From Gemmatimonadota bacterium (GTDB lineage Bacteria; Gemmatimonadota; Gemmatimonadetes; Gemmatimonadales; GWC2-71-9), in the NCBI GenBank assembly GCA_036679645.1, contig JAZDCY010000094.1, positions 1 through 12,487 on the forward strand: 12,487 nucleotides of DNA, given 5' to 3'. Position 1 is the first letter of the stretch. Every line of letters begins with the position of its first letter. The notes beneath the pieces were generated by a model. That model was not told the DNA's origin. It saw only the letters and a program-made list of their open reading frames with translations, and searched no databases. Positions 1 through 12,487 of this stretch are shown here, piece by piece. Position numbers and translations under genes: made by a program.

Positions 1-114
1 CGGCGCGCAGTTCCGCGATGGTCATTGCCGTGCCCCAGAGGTCGGCGGCACCGCCGAACACGTAGCGGAGGATCTCGCCCTTGCCGGAGTCGGCCACAGA
101 CTTGGCAGCGCCGA
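1..114. repeat. Terminal direct repeat, copy 1 (114 bp); circularisation overlap
   Basis: 1-114 (cggcgcgcag...ttggcagcgccga) is identical to 12374-12487, giving a unit length of 12,373 bp. Confidence 0.98.
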
Positions 115-556
115 GCGCCACGTCGGAGCCGTCGTACAACTGGCAGCGGATGTTGGCCCCGAGGCCCGCGAAGGACGCCCAGATATGCGCGGTGAAACCC
201 ACGAGCGTTGCGGGGCCTGGCGGAGCCAGTAGCACCCTGTCCGTTTCGATGAGCTTCATTGTGAGCGCGCCGGAACCGGCGTTCTGTGACGACGCGACGG
301 TGCCGTCCTCTGCGCCCTCTGCGTTTGCGAGTGAGTCGGTCCACGAGCTACCGGCCTCGATCTCCTTGATGGTGAAACCGTATCGGCCCTCGACGTCGGC
401 GTAGCCTGGCAGGATGTCAATGTCCATTTCCGGCGCGGCGGGGCCGCCCGACGTGCCGATGAGGGCGACCCGAGCGCCGGGGTCGGCGACGGTCGAGGGA
501 ATGATGCGGCGGCGCTCCTGCAAAAACTCTTGTACCACCTGGCCGACGCCGTCCAT
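1..556 (-). CDS. 5' part of junction-spanning 219-aa beta-rich protein, putative spike / receptor-binding protein (continues at 12373-12270)
   Basis: Absent from the ORF track because it crosses the end. Manual translation from ATG 556 (TAATG overlap with upstream stop): MDGVGQVVQEFLQERRRIIPSTVADPGARVALIG...GANIRCQLYDGSDVALGAAKSVADSGKGEILRY, in frame with the 12270..12470 ORF; 556+104=660 nt. Confidence 0.88.
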   Translation of the reverse strand, partial: MDGVGQVVQEFLQERRRIIPSTVADPGARVALIGTSGGPAAPEMDIDILPGYADVEGRYGFTIKEIEAGSSWTDSLANAEGAEDGTVASSQNAGSGALTMKLIETDRVLLAPPGPATLVGFTAHIWASFAGLGANIRCQLYDGSDVALGAAKSVADSGKGEILRYVFGGAADLWGTAMTIAELRA

Positions 557-1287
557 TACAACCACTCGCGCTGCACGATTACCGGCGAGGTGTAGATCTC
601 GACCTTGGCGTACCCGACAATGATGCGCGTCGCGGCCGGTGTGTCTACGTACGTGCCTCGCATGACGAGCGCCACGTCGAGCGTATCGCGCCGCGCGATG
701 CGCAGGGCGGCCGGGAGGAACCGGCGGGCGCTGAACGTCCGCGACGGGACCGCGTCGGTGAAGTTCCCGGCCGGGAATGATTCGGCGATCATGTAGTTGC
801 GTGCCGTGTCGGGCGTGACCTGTCCGGCGGCCTGGTCGTTCTCGATCGCGGGGAGATCGACACGTCGGCTGTTCCATTGGCCCGCCCGCAGGCCGAGGTT
901 GCGCTCGATGACGATGGCGGCGCTGATGCCGTTGGTGTCGCCCCATGCCGTTATGGTGCCCGCCGATGGAGTTGCGGCCCCCGTCGGGTCCGTCGGTCTC
1001 AAGTCGATGTCTGCGCCGTGAAACAGGAAGTCCCCCGCGTTCTTCGCGTCGATGGACTTCAAGAGCCACCATGCGCTTTCGCCGCTGGCGATGGCGTCCC
1101 CAGCGAGCACGGTCAACTCGTGGAACCATGCGCGGTACGGCCGCAACGGCGACATGATGTCGGTGAGCGGTGGGCGGGCTGGCTTGCGCGGACCTGACGC
1201 CCCCGGCGCGGCCTGGCTGCCAATGCTGACTGTGATGCCAGCCCTCGCGAGGCGCGGATTGGGGTGCGGTTGGCTGAGGGTGGTCAC
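556..1287 (-). CDS. Beta-rich structural protein, possible penton/vertex or minor jelly-roll capsid protein (243 aa; start uncertain)
   Basis: GTG start 3 nt after the upstream stop; stop overlaps the next ATG; C-terminal alternating hydrophobic strands (LRIARRDTLDVALVM...IIVGYAKVEIY); lies in the structural block. Confidence 0.7.
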   Translation of the reverse strand: MTTLSQPHPNPRLARAGITVSIGSQAAPGASGPRKPARPPLTDIMSPLRPYRAWFHELTVLAGDAIASGESAWWLLKSIDAKNAGDFLFHGADIDLRPTDPTGAATPSAGTITAWGDTNGISAAIVIERNLGLRAGQWNSRRVDLPAIENDQAAGQVTPDTARNYMIAESFPAGNFTDAVPSRTFSARRFLPAALRIARRDTLDVALVMRGTYVDTPAATRIIVGYAKVEIYTSPVIVQREWL

Positions 1288-1290
1288 GGG

Positions 1291-1812
1291 CTACAGGTTC
1301 TTGTTGATGCGCTTGCCCATGAGTGCGAGGCGGGCGGTTGGCGCGATGTTGTCCGAATCGTTGTAGAGAGTGCAGCGTATCTGCGCACCCGGCGCGGCGA
1401 CGAACTGATGCAGCGGGAAGATCTGGCCGCCGGGGATCGAACACAGCGCGGCGGCGGGGACGGGATCACTCTGCCAGCGTTGGCCGCCCGCTTCCAGTTC
1501 CATTCGGAAGTGAGAGAGCGAGAGCCCGGTGTTGAGCGTGCCGCTGGCGTTGGTGTTCTCAATCCAACCCGGACCAGCGCCCAGCGTCGAACCCTCCTCG
1601 TCGGCCACGTGCGCTGGTAACAGGAACATATTGGACACGACGAAAATGGTTTCGCTGTCAACGGTGACGGTGGCGTCGTCGCTGGTCAGCGTCCCGACGG
1701 CCGTATCCCACTCGATCATGTAGATGTAGCTGTAGTTGTTCGGCGCGTGGATCTGGCCGAGGTTGTCGATGCCCAAGTGTTGCAGAACGTCGGCGACGCT
1801 GTTCAGTTCCAT
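1291..1812 (-). CDS. Putative second single-jelly-roll capsid protein (173 aa)
   Basis: AGGAG RBS 7 nt before ATG; beta-strand pattern (YSYIYMIEW, TVTVDSETIFVVS, FRMELEA, IRCTLYN, ARLALMG); C-terminal half parallels the 227-aa upstream protein. Confidence 0.7.
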   Translation of the reverse strand: MELNSVADVLQHLGIDNLGQIHAPNNYSYIYMIEWDTAVGTLTSDDATVTVDSETIFVVSNMFLLPAHVADEEGSTLGAGPGWIENTNASGTLNTGLSLSHFRMELEAGGQRWQSDPVPAAALCSIPGGQIFPLHQFVAAPGAQIRCTLYNDSDNIAPTARLALMGKRINKNL

Positions 1813-1878: not shown

Positions 1879-2562
1879 TCAGAGGTTGGCGGGCGAGACG
1901 AGGATGCCCTCGATCTGGCAGACGAGTATGACGGGAGCCGCCACGGCTATGGCCACGTCGTTGGTGACGCGCACCCGCAGCGTCTTGCCGGGCAGCGCCG
2001 CAATCGGGTAGCGCAGTCCGTACTTGTTTGCGAGTGCCGGGATGCCGTTGGTGTACGCGATGGACTGGTGGTATACGGCGGCGATCTCGCTCGTGCATGA
2101 GGTCATCGCTGCGCCGATGCCGAGCGGGTAGTTTTCCATGCCTTGCCCGTCGATGAACGTCCGCGAGCCGATGGTCCCGACCACTCGGCCGAGCTGCATC
2201 ATGCCGCGTACGTCTTCCGCCTGCAAGATGGGGAGAACGCTAGCCAGACCGAGATCCGCACCCGCCTCTGCGGTGTAGTCGGTGCTGTGGCCGTGTATGA
2301 CGTTGAACCCGAAGTGAGTCACCCAGAGCGCGTGCTCCTCGGGGAGTCCCGACGCGCCCGGCCAGTTGGTGATGTACTCCGACTCCGACGCGCTGAAAAA
2401 CGTGCGCGACGTGAAGCCGCCGACGGCTACGTCGGTGCTGTGAAAGTACGTCGCGGGGCGCACGTTGTACTGCTGAAGATCCAAGGGCGTCACGCGCCCG
2501 GTGAGAACGCGGTCAAAGACGGCCGCTGTTTCGCTGTTGAGTCCGGGCCACTTGGTTGCCAT
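1879..2562 (-). CDS. Putative major capsid protein, single jelly-roll type (227 aa)
   Basis: AAAGGA RBS; followed by a terminator-like hairpin, suggesting high expression; beta-rich with RTFF...TNWPGASGLPEEHALWVTHFGF and PIAALPGKTLRVRVTND...ILVCQIEGIL. Fold assignment is inference. Confidence 0.65.
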   Translation of the reverse strand: MATKWPGLNSETAAVFDRVLTGRVTPLDLQQYNVRPATYFHSTDVAVGGFTSRTFFSASESEYITNWPGASGLPEEHALWVTHFGFNVIHGHSTDYTAEAGADLGLASVLPILQAEDVRGMMQLGRVVGTIGSRTFIDGQGMENYPLGIGAAMTSCTSEIAAVYHQSIAYTNGIPALANKYGLRYPIAALPGKTLRVRVTNDVAIAVAAPVILVCQIEGILVSPANL

Positions 2563-2713: not shown

Positions 2714-3355
2714 TCACGTGCTGAGAGCGTCTGCGAGCGCTTCGAGTTCATCGACGGCCATTGCGTCCTCGCGGGCGTCGGTGATCTGCAACGGGTCGTT
2801 TGGGTCGTCTGACTCGCCGAGTGCGCCGCCCTCGATGCCCTTGAGTCCTGGCACCTTCGCGAGCATGCCGCCCGCCACGTCGAGCGCCGGGCTCATTAGC
2901 CCGCCGATCACGATGGCCCTGGTGTCGGCTGCGTTCAGCCCCGCGAATTTGCGCAGGACCATGCCGAGTGCGATGGCCGCGCCCGCCTTGGCGAAGATGC
3001 GAGACGTGCCCTTCTTGAACTGCGGTGGGATGGGTGCCTTGTCCACGATCAACTGGACGCCGATGAATCCGGCCGTGCCGAACGCGACTTGTTTCGGCGC
3101 ACCGGCGGGAATGAATGTGAACGCGCGGGCCTTCCGGGGTGTCCGCCGCTTCTTGCTCGTTTTCCTTCTGGCCACGGTTTTTCTCCTTGTCGGTTTCCGG
3201 GTGGTCCGGCGTTTGGCGGTCGTGCGCTTCTTGGTCGTGCGCTTCCTGGTGCTCTTGCGGGTCGTCTTCTTGCGAAGGTTCCGGCGGCGCGTGGCGCGTC
3301 CCTTGGCGAGTACTGCCAGTTGCTTACGTGAGAGTTTGCGTTTGCGCTTGGCCAT
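2714..3355 (-). CDS. Arg/Lys-rich histone/protamine-like protein with hydrophobic segments and acidic tail; putative genome-condensing core protein (213 aa)
   Basis: GGAGG RBS 8 nt before ATG 3355 (alternative ATG 3361); the first ~75 aa are dominated by K/R/T (RKKTTRKSTRKRTTKKRTTAKRRTTRKPTRRK), then Gly/Ala hydrophobic helices, then GALG followed by an acidic tail (ESDDPNDP...DELEALADALST). Confidence 0.85.
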   Translation of the reverse strand: MAKRKRKLSRKQLAVLAKGRATRRRNLRKKTTRKSTRKRTTKKRTTAKRRTTRKPTRRKTVARRKTSKKRRTPRKARAFTFIPAGAPKQVAFGTAGFIGVQLIVDKAPIPPQFKKGTSRIFAKAGAAIALGMVLRKFAGLNAADTRAIVIGGLMSPALDVAGGMLAKVPGLKGIEGGALGESDDPNDPLQITDAREDAMAVDELEALADALST

Positions 3356-3357
3356 GT

Positions 3358-4023
3358 TCATCGCCTCCCGAGGATGCGCCGGGGCGTGCGGGTAAAGAAC
3401 CAGAGGGCGGCGAGCCCGAGCAATACGCCGGTGCCTCCGAGTGCGAATCCAAACGATGCCGGTGTGATGCTGCGGATGGCCGTGACCATCGCCCCCTCGC
3501 TGGCGTTGTTCCAGTCGATGCGCGAGGTTGGCGGGTTGCGCTTCCACGGGTTGACGTTCTCGCCGCGGCGCTTCCGCTCTGCCTGCACGGCCACGAGCGC
3601 GTCCTGGCTCGCGTCGTCGGCCTGGTTCGAGCGGAGTTCGAGCACTGGCAGCAAGCGGCGCATCTCGCCCAGGTCGATCGCGACGGACAGCGCCCAGGAC
3701 TCAATCGACGGTACGCCGCGATGCGCCCGGCCCCGGTAGGGGTTGCGGGCGATGTCGGCGCGGGCTTCGTCAATGAGCACGCGAGCGAGCGCGGCGAAAC
3801 CCTCCAAGGTGCCGACGGACTCGCCGAACACGGCGAGCGGCGGGATGGACTTGCCGCCGAGTTTCCCGACCATGCTCTGGTGGAGTTTGCGCATGCCGAC
3901 GGTGCGGGCCTGGTACGCCATGAGCGCGTCAACTTGTAGAGCTGCTCTGCGTTGGTCTCGCGCGAGCACAAAGCCGACGCGGCCGAGTTCCCCGAGGTTG
4001 GTGTCTGCGTGTTCCAGGTACAT
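3358..4023 (-). CDS. Putative virion membrane protein with C-terminal TM anchor (221 aa)
   Basis: Likely start ATG 4023 (MYLEHADTNLGELG), 2 nt after the upstream stop; C-terminal FGFALGGTGVLLGLAALWFF followed by a basic tail RTPRRILGRR. Confidence 0.8.
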   Translation of the reverse strand: MYLEHADTNLGELGRVGFVLARDQRRAALQVDALMAYQARTVGMRKLHQSMVGKLGGKSIPPLAVFGESVGTLEGFAALARVLIDEARADIARNPYRGRAHRGVPSIESWALSVAIDLGEMRRLLPVLELRSNQADDASQDALVAVQAERKRRGENVNPWKRNPPTSRIDWNNASEGAMVTAIRSITPASFGFALGGTGVLLGLAALWFFTRTPRRILGRR

Positions 4024-4025
4024 GG

Positions 4026-4493
4026 TCAGCTTCCCAGTAGCAACAGTGCTGCCGCGCCGCCCGCAACCATGAGCGTCACGGGGTTCGTGCCCAGCGTCTT
4101 GGCGATCGACGTGATGTCCGCAACCGGCCTGCCCGTTATTTGTGATGCACGGGCCACCTGCGCCTGGATGGCCTTCACCCGCGCCCTGGCCTGCGCTTCG
4201 GCCGCCTGTTTGGCCTTCTTCTGTTTGAGCGCCGCCCTCTTGACGATGGCCCTCTGTTCCGGGTCGAGTTGCGCCCCGACGGCGAGTACGGCTCCGCCCG
4301 CCGCCGGTCCCCCGTAGATCGTCGCGGCGGTCGCGCCTGCGATGATCGCCGTTTTGGTGAGCGTGTTCTTGTTGCGCTTCACAAACTTCGAGAAGACCGA
4401 GCCCATCTGTCCCATACCCTGGTCCGACTGCGCAAAGCTGTCGATGTCGAGCCAGTCGATGAGCTGTGTGCTGTGTGCTTGTGCGGTGGTCAT
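4026..4493 (-). CDS. Putative virion membrane protein, DWLDIDS paralogue B (155 aa)
   Basis: Acidic leader IDWLDIDS..GMGQMG, internal hydrophobic stretch, basic helical region, hydrophobic C-terminus; shares two motifs with 4503..4874. Confidence 0.85.
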   Translation of the reverse strand: MTTAQAHSTQLIDWLDIDSFAQSDQGMGQMGSVFSKFVKRNKNTLTKTAIIAGATAATIYGGPAAGGAVLAVGAQLDPEQRAIVKRAALKQKKAKQAAEAQARARVKAIQAQVARASQITGRPVADITSIAKTLGTNPVTLMVAGGAAALLLLGS

Positions 4494-4502
4494 GGCTCAT
4501 AT

Positions 4503-4874
4503 TCAACGACGCTTTTTGACGATCAGGGCCACGGCGACTGCCGCGACAACTGCGGTGGCTACGGTCCCGACGAGTGCGGGCCTGGCGGACGACTGTGCTG
4601 AGGGCGCTGTAGCGCCCGGAATGACGATGATTTGCGGGGCGGCGGCGGCGGCGGATGCCGGGGCTCCGGACCTGGTTGCAAACGCCGACGCGAATTGCCC
4701 GGCGGTCTTGGTGAGCGTGGCGAGGTTGCGCTGCAGGAAGTTGCCGAACAGAGTCCCGGTACCGCCGGGGTTGTCGGTGATGGATGACGTCTGCAACGAG
4801 AGCGGGAGGATGGCCGCCCCGAGTGCGCCGTCGGTTCCCATGCTGTCAATGTCGAGCCAGTCTAAATCGAGCAT
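4503..4874 (-). CDS. Putative virion membrane protein, DWLDIDS paralogue A (123 aa)
   Basis: GGAG RBS; leader LDWLDIDSMGTDGALG; C-terminal TM LVGTVATAVVAAVAVALIV followed by KKRR. Confidence 0.85.
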   Translation of the reverse strand: MLDLDWLDIDSMGTDGALGAAILPLSLQTSSITDNPGGTGTLFGNFLQRNLATLTKTAGQFASAFATRSGAPASAAAAAPQIIVIPGATAPSAQSSARPALVGTVATAVVAAVAVALIVKKRR

Positions 4875-6475: not shown

Positions 6476-7036
6476 CTACACGTTTATCAGCCATACTTTG
6501 CGCCTTCCGTGGCGTGCCTCGTTGCCGACGCGCCGCATCTCCTGCGGGTCGAACGCGAGCGCCTTGCCGGACCCGGTGACGACTCCCGCGTAGACGTGCG
6601 AGAACGCGAAACCGCCCGGCTCGGCGATGGTGATGAACACGGGAGTGAACCCAGCGCCGAGCAACAGCGCGGCGGCGAGCGGTGCCGACTCGTCACAGTC
6701 AACGCACGCGCGTGCGCCGCCGGTCGTAGAGGCGGCGATCTCTTGTAGAATCAGGTCCGGGTGCTTGATCCGCTCGACGCCCTTGGGGTCCTTGCAAAAG
6801 TCTACGTTGCGCTGCATCCACTTGAACAAAGCCACGAGCCGCGCGGGGCGGGAGTCCGTCCCCGCCACGATCCGCGCGGCTGTGGCCCGTGTGTTCCCTC
6901 GCTCATTGGCATCTTGCACGAGCGAGCGCATGGACGCGATCGTATCGGCGACGCCCCGGTCCCCTTTGGCGAGCGGTATCCGCAGCGCTTGCTCAGTGTC
7001 CGGGTGATGGATTTCGAGAACGTCGCCGAGTGCCAT
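6476..7036 (-). CDS. Transglutaminase-like (papain-fold) Cys-His-Asp enzyme, putative cysteine protease (186 aa)
   Basis: GGAG RBS; ALFKWMQRNVDF..DP..VE, catalytic-type VDCDE, FSHVYA and AFDP motifs in the order typical of the transglutaminase-like superfamily. Confidence 0.85.
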   Translation of the reverse strand: MALGDVLEIHHPDTEQALRIPLAKGDRGVADTIASMRSLVQDANERGNTRATAARIVAGTDSRPARLVALFKWMQRNVDFCKDPKGVERIKHPDLILQEIAASTTGGARACVDCDESAPLAAALLLGAGFTPVFITIAEPGGFAFSHVYAGVVTGSGKALAFDPQEMRRVGNEARHGRRKVWLINV

Positions 7037-8620: not shown

Positions 8621-8937
8621 GCGCCGTCCTCCTGCACCTCGACGCGGCGCAGTTCCGTCGCCCGTTCGTCCATGACGCCGTACCACTCCGCCAGACCGCC
8701 GATGTAGGTGAGCGCCTCCTGCATATTCCGGCGCTGGCGGTTGCTCATGTGTATGTCGAACGACATTCGGCTACTGCCGAAGCGTCGGCTATCCAGCGCC
8801 TGCGCCATTATCGTGCGAATCGCTAGGAGTCCGCTCAGCTTCCGTCCGTCGAGGGCCGGTATGTCGGGCATTATCAGCGCCCATTCCCTCTGCTCCGCTG
8901 TGACCGTCGCCGTCGTCCTCTTCTTCTTCTTCTTCAT
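8617..8937 (-). CDS. Hypothetical protein, 'AxWYG' paralogue A (106 aa; alternative start ATG 8871)
   Basis: GGAG RBS before ATG 8937 (MKKKKKRTT); homology to 8324..8620 supports coding despite overlap with the 3' end of 8789..10093. Confidence 0.75.
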   Translation of the reverse strand: MKKKKKRTTATVTAEQREWALIMPDIPALDGRKLSGLLAIRTIMAQALDSRRFGSSRMSFDIHMSNRQRRNMQEALTYIGGLAEWYGVMDERATELRRVEVQEDGA

Positions 8938-10093
8938 GTCCGGTCTCCGGTGATGTGGTGAATGTGCGCATTTCGGCCTCGATCTCCGCCACCCAGTCTG
9001 CGTACGGCCCGAGTGCGGGCGCTGCGCCGACCAGCAGCGCCGCCACGTCGCCGACTTCGCCATCCGCTAGCGACTTGACCAGCGCCTCGGCCGTCCGTGC
9101 GACCGCGCCGCCCTGGTGTCTTGCGTGCTCGAGCCTGTCGAATAGGACCGATGCGTACGCGCTCGCCTCGGCACCCGGCGACTGCGCACCGCGCAGTAGG
9201 TCCTCGACAATTGCCCGCAGCAATGTGCGCGCTTCCTCGGCCTCCTTGCGCTCCTGGTCGATCTGCGGCGCGGCCGTGGTGGGCGCTGGGTCTGCTGTCG
9301 CCGCGCCCAGCGCTTCGCGGTTGGCTTTCAGTTCCGCCACGACAGAGGGCAAAGTGCTCTGGATGAGATCGGCGAGCAACGAACCGCCCTCGCCTCCGGG
9401 CGCTACGTCCGACGCGAGGTCGCGCATGGTCCTGATCGCCTCGGACAGTTCGCCCATCCCCGACCGCTTGTCCATCATCGCAATCAGGTCGAGCGTGCTG
9501 GGTCGGTTGTCCATGACCATCTTGAGGATCCCGGTGGCGGCGGTGATGCACGTTGGGAGAATCGCCACAAACTGGTTTTGCGCCGCCGGTTCGCGTCGGG
9601 TGCGCAGTGCTTCCAAGATCTCCGCGTGTTGCTCGCGCATCTCTTGTAGTTCGGCGGCCGACACGACCGCGCCCGTACGTGCAGGGCCTCGCGCCGGTGT
9701 GCGTGGCGAGTCCAGCGGTTTGGCGACGGTGAATCGCAGAGTCTTGTTGACGCCGCCGCCGCCGCCGGTCACGATCAAGCGCCGAACATAGTCGCCCGCA
9801 TCGACGCCCTCTGCGTACTCGCCTTCGTCCCACTGGCGCATGTCCACGTTGCCGAGCGTCTGCTCTGCCCCGTTTACGATGCGGCGCACGCGGTAGAAAG
9901 CTGAGTACGGGCCTGGGCTTGCGCGGCGGAACCGGCGGACCAGGTCGATGGTCTCGTGTGTGCTGTGATCTTCCGGTACCTGGAACCCTTCGGCGAGCGC
10001 GTCCTCTGGCAAACGCTGCTCCTCGGGCGTCGTGTCGGCGTCGTCCAGGTCGGGGGTGGCTGCTTCTGCGCTGTTGTCGTCCGTTGCTGTCAT
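8789..10093 (-). CDS. Hypothetical 434-aa protein (acidic N-terminus, small beta domain, long helical region, acidic tail)
   Basis: GGGAG RBS and ATGA overlap at 10093 (MTATDDNSAE); the ORF-track extension to 10477 overlaps rep and reads as off-frame sequence. Confidence 0.85.
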   Translation of the reverse strand: MTATDDNSAEAATPDLDDADTTPEEQRLPEDALAEGFQVPEDHSTHETIDLVRRFRRASPGPYSAFYRVRRIVNGAEQTLGNVDMRQWDEGEYAEGVDAGDYVRRLIVTGGGGGVNKTLRFTVAKPLDSPRTPARGPARTGAVVSAAELQEMREQHAEILEALRTRREPAAQNQFVAILPTCITAATGILKMVMDNRPSTLDLIAMMDKRSGMGELSEAIRTMRDLASDVAPGGEGGSLLADLIQSTLPSVVAELKANREALGAATADPAPTTAAPQIDQERKEAEEARTLLRAIVEDLLRGAQSPGAEASAYASVLFDRLEHARHQGGAVARTAEALVKSLADGEVGDVAALLVGAAPALGPYADWVAEIEAEMRTFTTSPETGHEEEEEEDDGDGHSGAEGMGADNARHTGPRRTEAERTPSDSHDNGAGAG

Positions 10094-11172
10094 TCGTGCT
10101 TGCTCCCTGCGTGAGTTTTGGCGCTGGTTTCGGTGGCGTCGAGCACCGCTACGACCGCATTTCGGAAAATCGGGCCGATCGCAATCTGCCGCGCCGTGCG
10201 TTCGCCGGATTTCAGTTTGCGGATGGCGTTGTCCGCCGAGCGCCGGGCGAACCCGTCGAGCGTGCCCGTTACTTCGTCGAGCGCGGCGAGGATCTGCGCC
10301 TCGTTGAACCGATCGAACGTCTGCTCTAGGGTGACGCGCTCGGCCTCGACGCGCTGTGCTTCCTGTGTTGCGTGCGCCGCGTCGGCCTCCGCCTGGCGTT
10401 GCCGTTGCTCGCGCGCTTCGTCGCCGCGTTGCTTGAGGTCGGCGCGCCGTGTTTCGTCCGCCTGAACCTCCGCGCAAAACTCCGGGTCATCCACGAGTTT
10501 CCCGACGAATCCGCGCACGTTTTTCGGCTTGCGCTCGTCCGCTCGCTTCAGCGCAGCCATGACGACGGCCGCGCCGACGTGGTTGCGCGTCGCCTCTGCC
10601 CTCTGTTCCGAAAACCCTAACAGAATCAACGCGGCGGCGGCGGCTTTGGCATCGGCCTCGCTATCGCGGGCGCACGCGTGCGTACGTGCGTGCGTGCGTT
10701 GGCCGCCGCCGTATTCTGTATTCCCTGGTTTTGAGGGGAAAGTGCGCAAAGGCTTGCGCCTTTGCTTCGCGCCCAGATCGGTCAGTTTTGACCGATTACC
10801 GGGTTCCAGATCGGTCACAATTGACCGATCTAGGTCGTCTAATTCGGTCAGTTCTGACCGATCTAGCTCCGCCAGTTCTGCAATCTGTTGCGCAGGCATC
10901 CCCCGTTTTGCCACTGGGATAAAAAAAACATGCTCGGGTTGTATTAGGTATCCCTGCCCTTTTTTTCCCATTCGGTCGGATTTCACCAATCCGACGGTTT
11001 CGAGCCGCGCGATGGAGCGCTGCACGCTCGACGTGCTCACACCGAGCGACCGCGCGATAGCGCTGTGCTTGGCGGTTAGGTGTCGGTGCTCGCTGGCTGT
11101 CCACATAGCTAAAAACACTCGTAAATCGCGCCCATCGACGGCCTGGGAGAGGGCGTTTAGGAGTTCTCGCAT
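10090..11172 (-). CDS. Replication initiator with N-terminal winged HTH and internal iterons (lambda O / DnaD-type organisation; 360 aa)
   Basis: GGAGG 9 nt before ATG 11172; HSAIARSLGVSTSSVQRSIARLETVGLVK wHTH; repetitive linker (LDRSELTE/LDRSIVTD/GNRSKLTD) and RTHARTHACAR; C-terminal KPKNVRGFV helical domain. Confidence 0.8.
   Translation of the reverse strand: MRELLNALSQAVDGRDLRVFLAMWTASEHRHLTAKHSAIARSLGVSTSSVQRSIARLETVGLVKSDRMGKKGQGYLIQPEHVFFIPVAKRGMPAQQIAELAELDRSELTELDDLDRSIVTDLEPGNRSKLTDLGAKQRRKPLRTFPSKPGNTEYGGGQRTHARTHACARDSEADAKAAAAALILLGFSEQRAEATRNHVGAAVVMAALKRADERKPKNVRGFVGKLVDDPEFCAEVQADETRRADLKQRGDEAREQRQRQAEADAAHATQEAQRVEAERVTLEQTFDRFNEAQILAALDEVTGTLDGFARRSADNAIRKLKSGERTARQIAIGPIFRNAVVAVLDATETSAKTHAGSKHE
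10775..10864. repeat. Three 24-bp palindromic iterons at 33-bp period; putative replication origin
   Basis: agatcggtca-gttt-tgaccgatta (10775), agatcggtca-caat-tgaccgatct (10808), aattcggtca-gttc-tgaccgatct (10841); core TCGGTCA-N4-TGACCGA; flanked by A/T-richer sequence. Confidence 0.85.
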
Positions 11173-11884: not shown

Positions 11885-12277
11885 TCAGATTGGCAGATCG
11901 TCGGCCGGGAACAGTAACAGGTTGTCGGTCGGGTCGAGCCTCGCGATCTCGTCAACCTGCAACTCGTTGGCGCGGGCGTCGCTGGTGATGCACAGCGCCA
12001 CGAGCACGTCCTGGCGATCGTACTCCGTCCCGCCGCGCCTGCGTCCCTGCGCGTCCTGGTCGGGCGAGATCGCCCAACTGCGAAAGTGGCGAGTGAGCGT
12101 GTCGAACAGTCGGCCGGTGTGTGACTCGCCGATGTACAGAACCTCGCGCGTGCGGGCGTCGATGATTGCGTACGCGCCGCTGGCATGTTTGTGGCGCAGG
12201 TCGTCGAGTCGAGCGACGTACTGCCCGTCGCCGTGCGCTGGAGCGAACGCCGTGCGTAGGCCCAGGGCTTTAGGCAT
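11885..12277 (-). CDS. GIY-YIG superfamily nuclease-like protein with non-canonical catalytic positions (130 aa)
   Basis: SGAYAI...EVLYIGES, L..T L.RHF and ANELQVDEIARLDPTDN correspond to the GIY, YIG, R-helix and E...I...P..N motifs; ATG 12277 overlaps the upstream gene end. Confidence 0.8.
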   Translation of the reverse strand: MPKALGLRTAFAPAHGDGQYVARLDDLRHKHASGAYAIIDARTREVLYIGESHTGRLFDTLTRHFRSWAISPDQDAQGRRRGGTEYDRQDVLVALCITSDARANELQVDEIARLDPTDNLLLFPADDLPI

Positions 12278-12487
12278 TGAATGTGTAGTGCGCAAAGAGT
12301 CGTATTGCGTCGATGTTGACGGTCGTCTCGCTGAGGTCTGTGACCTGGTACCACGCCGCCAGCTTGACGCCGTCGGCGCGCAGTTCCGCGATGGTCATTG
12401 CCGTGCCCCAGAGGTCGGCGGCACCGCCGAACACGTAGCGGAGGATCTCGCCCTTGCCGGAGTCGGCCACAGACTTGGCAGCGCCGA
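12270..12487 (-). CDS. 3' part of junction-spanning putative spike / receptor-binding protein
   Basis: ...SVADSGKGEILRYVFGGAADLWGTAMTIAELRADGVKLAAWYQVTDLSETTVNIDAIRLFAHYTFNA*. The FGGxxDLWG...IDxIRL pattern resembles beta-sandwich domains of phage/surface proteins (recalled, not searched). Confidence 0.85.
   Translation of the reverse strand, partial: GAAKSVADSGKGEILRYVFGGAADLWGTAMTIAELRADGVKLAAWYQVTDLSETTVNIDAIRLFAHYTFNA
12374..12487. repeat. Terminal direct repeat, copy 2 (114 bp)
   Basis: Exact copy of 1-114; it lies inside a coding frame, as expected for an assembly overlap of a circular molecule. Confidence 0.98.

Follow-up and report, generated by a model that had tools for sequence, protein, structure and literature searches.

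The contig JAZDCY010000094.1 (assembly GCA_036679645.1), deposited as part of a Gemmatimonadota bacterium, is contig C95 in a 4.05-Mb bacterial bin; the whole stretch of 12,487 nucleotides (nt) was analysed and is referred to here as the window. A direct repeat of 114 nt at its two ends (1..114, with the copy at 12374-12487) shows that the window closes into a circle of 12,373 bp. On the minus strand it carries a gene for a protein with a strongly basic N-terminus, which lies directly upstream of a gene for a capsid-type protein and is, therefore, called the pre-capsid gene. The features of the two genes are as follows:

2714..3355, minus strand: pre-capsid gene, long form, 213 amino acids (aa), net charge +38 (open reading frame (ORF) and charge counts; homologue P0002)
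3364..3369, minus strand: ribosome-binding site of the long form, GGGAGG, 8 nt before the ATG at 3355 (duplex energy -12.1 kcal/mol)
3122..3355, minus strand: polybasic arm, residues 1-78, with 41 K/R and 0 D/E (residue counts)
2825..3121, minus strand: conserved core, residues 79-177, three Gly/Ala-rich helices that end near a G-L/M-G motif (alignment and AlphaFold2)
2717..2830, minus strand: acidic tail, residues 176-213, lineage-restricted (residue counts)
3183..3188, minus strand: internal Shine-Dalgarno-like AAGGAG, 7 nt before an in-frame GTG (-8.3 kcal/mol)
2714..3175, minus strand: predicted nested short form from the GTG at codon 61, 153 aa, 10 K/R before the helices, net charge +7 (start signal)
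1879..2562, minus strand: single jelly-roll protein, likely the major capsid protein, 227 aa (AlphaFold2, Foldseek, VIA-align)

The tripartite anatomy described in the initial annotation was confirmed. Residues 1-75 contain 40 K/R and no D/E, Gly and Ala make up 33% of residues 76-175, and residues 176-213 contain 11 D/E versus 1 K/R, which gives the tail a net charge of -10. The (K/R)(K/R)TT(K/R) units described as repeated in the arm were found three times in strict form (at residues 29, 38 and 49); since three or more were obtained in only 72 of 20,000 arm shuffles, they are above chance within the arm, but they are not a conserved motif, as the homologue P0002 has none. AlphaFold2 predicted helices at residues 86-106, 118-138 and 142-166, in a block with a predicted local distance difference test score (pLDDT) of about 68-82 (16-sequence alignment). 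The best 19-residue Kyte-Doolittle windows (KD19) of the three helices amounted to 1.17, 1.37 and 1.61 and, because the helices are just marginally hydrophobic, membrane segments are a plausible reading of the model only. With the model of the pre-capsid protein, Foldseek found no match at E 0.001 or better, and ESM Atlas placed the core (0.91-0.92) and the capsid protein (0.98) in unnamed, mostly viral clusters, which are leads only. A search of PHROGs gave nothing and a search of Pfam one sub-threshold match, to HC2 (PF07382). Membership in this family was rejected, since the match scored 16.7 bits versus a cut-off of 40 and one member out of 16 gave a match at E 0.01 or better; the term "histone-like" thus does not hold as a family assignment.

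To collect related loci, a DNA pattern taken from the capsid gene and a single protein query were used. A second DNA pattern led to one locus, which lacks a capsid-profile match, and searches with peptide patterns revealed no relatives among the viral contigs or metagenome contigs searched. When 88 loci were scanned with the capsid profile, 27 matched, of which two are the window itself and six have 139 nt or less upstream. In all of the remaining 19 loci a gene encoding the three-helix core lies directly upstream of the capsid gene on the same strand, and the synteny is thus maintained in relatives. These loci represent about six lineages (L008; L038; L057; L069; L006/L048; and a 13-locus clade around L024); two of them (L041 and L074) are broken or truncated by the contig edge, and L057 is frameshifted. 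In L057, the frameshift in the pre-capsid gene (3813-4393) is located between arm and core; it is likely an assembly error, and the intact equivalent is P0173. The capsid gene starts 151 nt downstream of the pre-capsid gene in the window (gap at 2563-2713), compared to 19-125 nt in 18 related loci. Since the core profile had been built from 8 of the 19 loci, an independent test was made with a profile without the target. The pre-capsid core scored 16.7 bits against it, a score that was reached by 1 of 2,000 shuffles, and ranked first among the 18,373 ORFs of the bin (E 0.16).

The closest homologue, P0002, is 65% identical over 99% of residues 74-213. Together with 56 proteins from a database search it makes up a family set of 57 proteins, 46 of which belong to one clade. 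A basic N-terminal part was found in 57/57, with a K/R fraction of the arm of 0.24-0.51 and from 16 to 66 K/R per arm, depending on the lineage; no homologue was without the basic region. A tail with a net charge of -8 or lower was found in 3/57. Since the arm is present throughout and a strongly acidic tail is not, the family is, as judged by sequence, defined by the basic arm and the three-helix core, and the acidic tail is not a family trait. The locus L004 (G359:C36, 1-2486), from another genome of the same taxonomic order, has a distant capsid-profile match (E 8e-7) and similar-looking flanking ORFs and may be a more remote member of the same virus class. When 400 further genomes from the phylum of the bin were searched with the capsid profile, 1 distant match was obtained.

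The product of the adjoining gene, which had been put forward as major capsid protein, has 120 library matches, itself included. Its AlphaFold2 model (115 sequences aligned) is one beta-sandwich with a pLDDT of 93.5. The top match was the capsid protein of the portoglobovirus SPV1 (6oj0) both in Foldseek (E 3.8e-3, template modelling (TM) score 0.46) and in VIA-align (Z 7.0, root-mean-square deviation 4.0, 148 residues aligned), where the capsid proteins of the haloviruses HHIV-2 and HCIV-1 came next, about tied. No sequence in the PDB matched the capsid alignment below E 0.49 and no Pfam family was shared with it, and tblastn of the capsid proteins of the window and of L068 against 50,697 phage records gave nothing. 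[quoted passage not shown]

No packaging ATPase could be recognised in this setting, as had been supposed. No Walker A (P-loop) motif, [GA]x4GK[ST], was found in the six-frame ORFs of at least 60 aa of the window circle, junction included, and none in those of the complete 14-kb circle L008. Pfam and PHROG scans of 21 window ORFs did not reveal ATPase families either.

A point missed by the earlier reading is a nested second start. Codon 61 of the pre-capsid gene is a GTG (3175..3173), in frame within the arm. The AAGGAG in front of it is written in the arginine codons AGG-AGA, which account for 31 and 7 of the 254 Arg codons in 15 other window genes. The pairing of -8.3 kcal/mol ranks second among 71 codon positions in the arm and is stronger than that of all 15 other assigned starts of the window, some of which are uncertain assignments. 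An internal ATG or GTG that follows a purine-rich run and precedes the final basic block was found in all 7 lineages examined, with single p values of 0.03 to 0.48 and a combined p of about 0.009; these statistics were obtained with a generic anti-Shine-Dalgarno sequence for a pattern spotted by eye before testing. In the L024 clade, the codons GGA GGA GGT GAA stand unchanged in 11/11 loci, 9 nt ahead of an in-frame ATG; the genes are 59-91% identical, the adjoining Leu codons vary and the remaining Gly codons are mostly GGC/GGG (248/347). Furthermore, the first residue of the database entry P0178 coincides with the internal start of L069, and that of P0179 with the internal start of L038. The longer frames of these two loci are basic in content and are preceded by ribosome-binding sites of their own. 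The conserved internal start signals imply a long and a short form, and the pre-capsid gene likely yields proteins of two sizes, of which the long one is predicted to condense DNA and the short one to serve as membrane scaffold.

We infer that the pre-capsid protein binds DNA, inserts into the membrane, is located in the virion and exists as two isoforms, and we consider it fairly probable that it is an internal core/membrane protein in the particle of an ATPase-less, portoglobovirus-like bacterial virus. According to this model, the three helices would be embedded in, or lie on, a lipid layer that comes from the host, either as true spans or as re-entrant or interfacial helices; an association of the core with lipid is suggested because neighbouring genes carry hydrophobic anchors and the nearest capsids are from membrane-containing viruses. 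The +41 arm of the long form would bind and neutralise DNA without sequence preference and pull the circular genome onto a membrane patch, while the short form, which has only about 10 basic residues, would be the scaffold that fills the membrane lattice. How much DNA-condensing charge is present per unit of membrane would then be set by the ratio between the two starts. Capsomers would then assemble on the outside and enclose the genome without a motor, comparable to the proposal for the corticovirus PM2 and to the SPV1 architecture. The acidic tail is, in this model, a lineage-specific add-on, perhaps for solubility or as a capsid-facing spacer, and would not be a required inhibitor. The earlier main idea, that the protein condenses the circular DNA and tethers it to the membrane for ATPase-free co-assembly, survived the computational tests; the tail hypothesis attached to it did not. 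Going further, we tentatively propose a widespread, undescribed lineage of motor-less single jelly-roll bacterial viruses in which one gene with at least two nested starts would provide long, protamine-like condensers and a short membrane scaffold, both fixed in one three-helix membrane lattice, and in which initiation strength would tune the amount of genome enclosed.

Several observations weigh against the model. The AlphaFold2 model of the pre-capsid protein has a predicted TM score (pTM) of 0.34, a KD19 of 1.6 is reached by just 7 of the 27 best windows across nine family cores, and basic residues are present in both inter-helix loops, a poor fit to a simple three-span topology. Given the weak hydropathy windows and the basic loops, the core may contain re-entrant or interfacial helices, or form a soluble bundle, instead of three spans. 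The match of the capsid fold is middling, its Z of 7.0 being in the range that the tool calls common, and SPV1 VP4 is just rank 25 among assorted jelly rolls in a predicted-virus library; the SPV1 lineage is, therefore, a lead for the modelled capsid. The absence of Walker A rests on two complete circles, the other loci being partial, and the motif search of the partial loci gave 15 matches in 8 loci, at the motif level only. Finally, the internal start of the window itself has a p of about 0.03, again with the generic anti-Shine-Dalgarno sequence and after it had been noticed by eye, and the internal start alone is not significant in L008 (p 0.48) or L038 (p 0.24).

The pre-capsid protein could also be a DNA-condensing core protein that has no role at the membrane and whose helices form a soluble oligomerisation bundle, which would build an inner protein shell or bind to the underside of the capsomers. 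Both the marginal hydrophobicity and the basic loops fit this, and the three-helix model resembles bundles from soluble proteins about as much as those from membrane proteins (Z 6.9 or lower); the best match, to PsaL-type three-helix proteins at Z 6.9, is below the level that the tool treats as meaningful for helical bundles. But the helices are 21-25 residues long and Gly-rich, and their centres are almost uncharged across lineages of 17-29% identity. Taken with the hydrophobic anchors encoded by the neighbouring genes and with closest capsid folds that belong to membrane-containing viruses, this makes a purely soluble bundle unlikely.

Adenovirus core precursors are cleaved and their fragments are kept in the particle. 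In the same way, the pre-capsid protein might be a transient assembly factor or precursor that is cut by the viral transglutaminase-like Cys-His-Asp protein encoded at 6476-7036, with fragments remaining in the particle. This protein is common to the window, L008 and L057, and Asn-Pro dipeptides, up to 7 per arm, punctuate the arms in two clades (L006 4068-5108, L024 5634-6503 and relatives). The arms of the window, P0002, L008 and P0173 do not contain Asn-Pro, however, and the alignment shows no conserved cut motif; size variants are already explained by the internal starts, and the family label of the Cys-His-Asp enzyme is tentative. We regard processing of this kind as improbable.

The initial annotation had seen the acidic tail as a possible intramolecular inhibitor or scaffold, and a tail folded back onto the basic arm until assembly would have a charge (-10) of about the same size as that of the 10 basic residues in the short form predicted here. 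By counts over the last 40 residues, acidic tails occur in 3 of 7 lineages and in P0181, namely in the window, P0002, L069/P0178, L057/P0173 and P0181, but the tail is neutral or basic in L008, L038, P0180, the L006/L048 clade and the L024 clade. Since the acidic tail is not conserved, the inhibitor fails as a mechanism of the family, and in the window -10 cannot mask or balance +41; there is little chance that the tail acts in this way.

Gly-rich helices of marginal hydrophobicity are a typical feature of proteins that alternate between a soluble and an inserted state, and such helices together with the basic arm could serve entry, by inserting into or fusing with the host membrane while the arm pilots the DNA in, but the strong ribosome-binding site and the fixed pre-capsid position suggest a high-copy structural role and the arm range of 16 to 66 K/R fits bulk charge neutralisation better, so that an entry function is very improbable.

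Besides the capsid gene, two further genes belong to the conserved surroundings of the pre-capsid gene:

556..1812, minus strand: conserved genes for proteins of 173 aa and 243 aa, located after the capsid gene in related loci (phmmer)

Their products had phmmer matches in 6 and 5 related loci, respectively, and are probably virion proteins, as far as can be told from sequence; the profile link to the capsid family is weak (probability 7% and 0.2%). Small neighbouring genes end in hydrophobic anchors (KD19 1.76, 1.52 and 2.66), as expected for a membrane-containing virion. Two adjacent small genes on the minus strand (4026-4493 and 4503-4874) encode C-terminal hydrophobic anchors and a common N-terminal motif; a 41-nt repeat is shared between them at 73% identity, and they probably arose by tandem duplication. 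The 186-aa Cys-Asp...His...Asp protein (6476-7036, minus strand), which is presumably of the transglutaminase-like type, has no Pfam match and may act as a protease in maturation or on the cell wall.

In run X1, which may be the source sample, the window was recovered as one circular contig of 12,403 nt with zero differences. Its depth was 51.6 versus 100.9 for one host stretch, and no stretch is common to the window and the rest of the bin. Given this half depth and the lack of a shared stretch, membership in the bacterial bin is unconfirmed and the host is not established. A bacterial host is, however, likely, since the window is found in a bin identified as bacterial by its 16S and the related circle L008 falls in a Phycisphaeraceae bin.

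Among the 21 window ORFs scanned, only helix-turn-helix proteins were above the Pfam cut-off or had clear PHROG matches. One of them (370 aa) resembles replication initiators. Within its gene, three 19-nt near-palindromic repeats with 33-nt spacing (10775-10864) look like iterons and may mark a replication origin inside the initiator's own gene. The likely replication gene of L008 (604-1758), by eye presumably a rolling-circle initiator, does not match the window initiator, although the structural module is common to both; the replication module appears to have been swapped. The replication gene of the window is followed by a gene (8789-10093, minus strand) for a strongly acidic 434-aa protein (net charge -34) with no family match; L008 has a 333-aa gene in this position, and phmmer gave no match between the two at E 0.01. 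A 136-aa ORF (11885-12295, minus strand), presumably a GIY-YIG-type nuclease by its motif but with no Pfam match, is closely matched by homologues from L008 and L038 (E about 1e-30). An Rfam search of the window gave no match.

The known system closest in design is that of the Portogloboviridae. SPV1 has a circular genome and, according to PMC8812541, no packaging ATPase; its single jelly-roll capsid (VP4/VP10) is the top structural match, and its DNA is condensed by protein in a nucleoprotein core inside the membrane (PMC8459092), as would be expected here from the genes alone. SPV1 differs in that it infects Saccharolobus and has a genome of about 20 kb, compared to 12.4 kb and a likely bacterial host for the window, and in that its nucleocapsid protein VP1 is separate from the membrane/subcapsomer proteins, whereas here arm and core are in one chain with two predicted starts; the pre-capsid protein would work like VP1 plus the subcapsomer proteins (PMC8459092). 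No sequence link between proteins of the window and SPV1 was found, and membership in the Portogloboviridae is not established.

The Odin group also has small ATPase-less genomes and a conserved, non-enzymatic pre-capsid gene, cons1, for which a function in DNA packaging was proposed (Yutin et al. 2018, PMC5894146, parts consulted). There, cons1 is described as small and without conserved polar residues, no polybasic arm is mentioned in these parts, and the capsid proteins have a double jelly roll (the query given in the supplement is 395 aa long), unlike the 227-aa one-sandwich protein of the window. Membership in the Odin group was rejected on the size and the one beta-sandwich of the capsid protein. 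PM2 has a double jelly-roll capsid, too, and encodes an ATPase. In the available sections of PMC6356626, circular double-stranded DNA, a virus-specific membrane patch and capsomers were proposed to co-assemble with no empty procapsid, on the membrane proteins P3/P6, for which these sections describe no long polybasic arm.

The Helvetiavirae (Singelaviria; P23-77, HHIV-2 and HCIV-1) share the single vertical jelly-roll fold (VIA-align ranks 2, 3 and 10) and have several small membrane-associated proteins (PMC12429598, in part). They are described with an FtsK-HerA ATPase and two major capsid proteins in the part of PMC8812541 available, in contrast to the window, which has no Walker A motif. 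One jelly roll is predicted among the window proteins modelled. Membership in the Helvetiavirae (Singelaviria; Halopanivirales), as defined with this ATPase, was rejected since neither the motif nor such a family was found in the window. The Charybdis elements, described in the accessible text as 4.6-kb marine elements with a double Greek-key protein (10.1101/2025.08.03.668216), were rejected as well.

The low-complexity Lys/Arg arm, which would neutralise DNA, is shared with the adenovirus core proteins VII/mu, protamines and chlamydial Hc2 at the level of composition only; to our knowledge, none of these carries a three-helix hydrophobic core as a fusion partner. A published description of the pre-capsid family was not found in the literature searched, in which subscription journals and the primary papers on SPV1 were mostly outside coverage, so that its absence is unproven. 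Passages of PMC13436329, 10.1101/2025.02.15.638363, PMC12714852 and PMC9719478 likewise yielded no information about the protein.

How DNA enters ATPase-less, membrane-containing icosahedral viruses is an open question according to the parts of PMC5894146 and PMC8812541 consulted. The pre-capsid family would provide one small, clonable protein for both halves of ATPase-free packaging, in a 12-kb genome simple enough for reconstitution; the added value is this small complete genome together with the two-start design, which is testable. It would also extend SPV1-like capsids from hot-spring archaea to probably bacterial hosts. If true, the motor-less two-start lineage would correspond, among bacterial viruses, to the portoglobovirus-like ancestor that has been proposed for Singelaviria, and particle building from nested starts would be a concrete mechanism for ATPase-free packaging.
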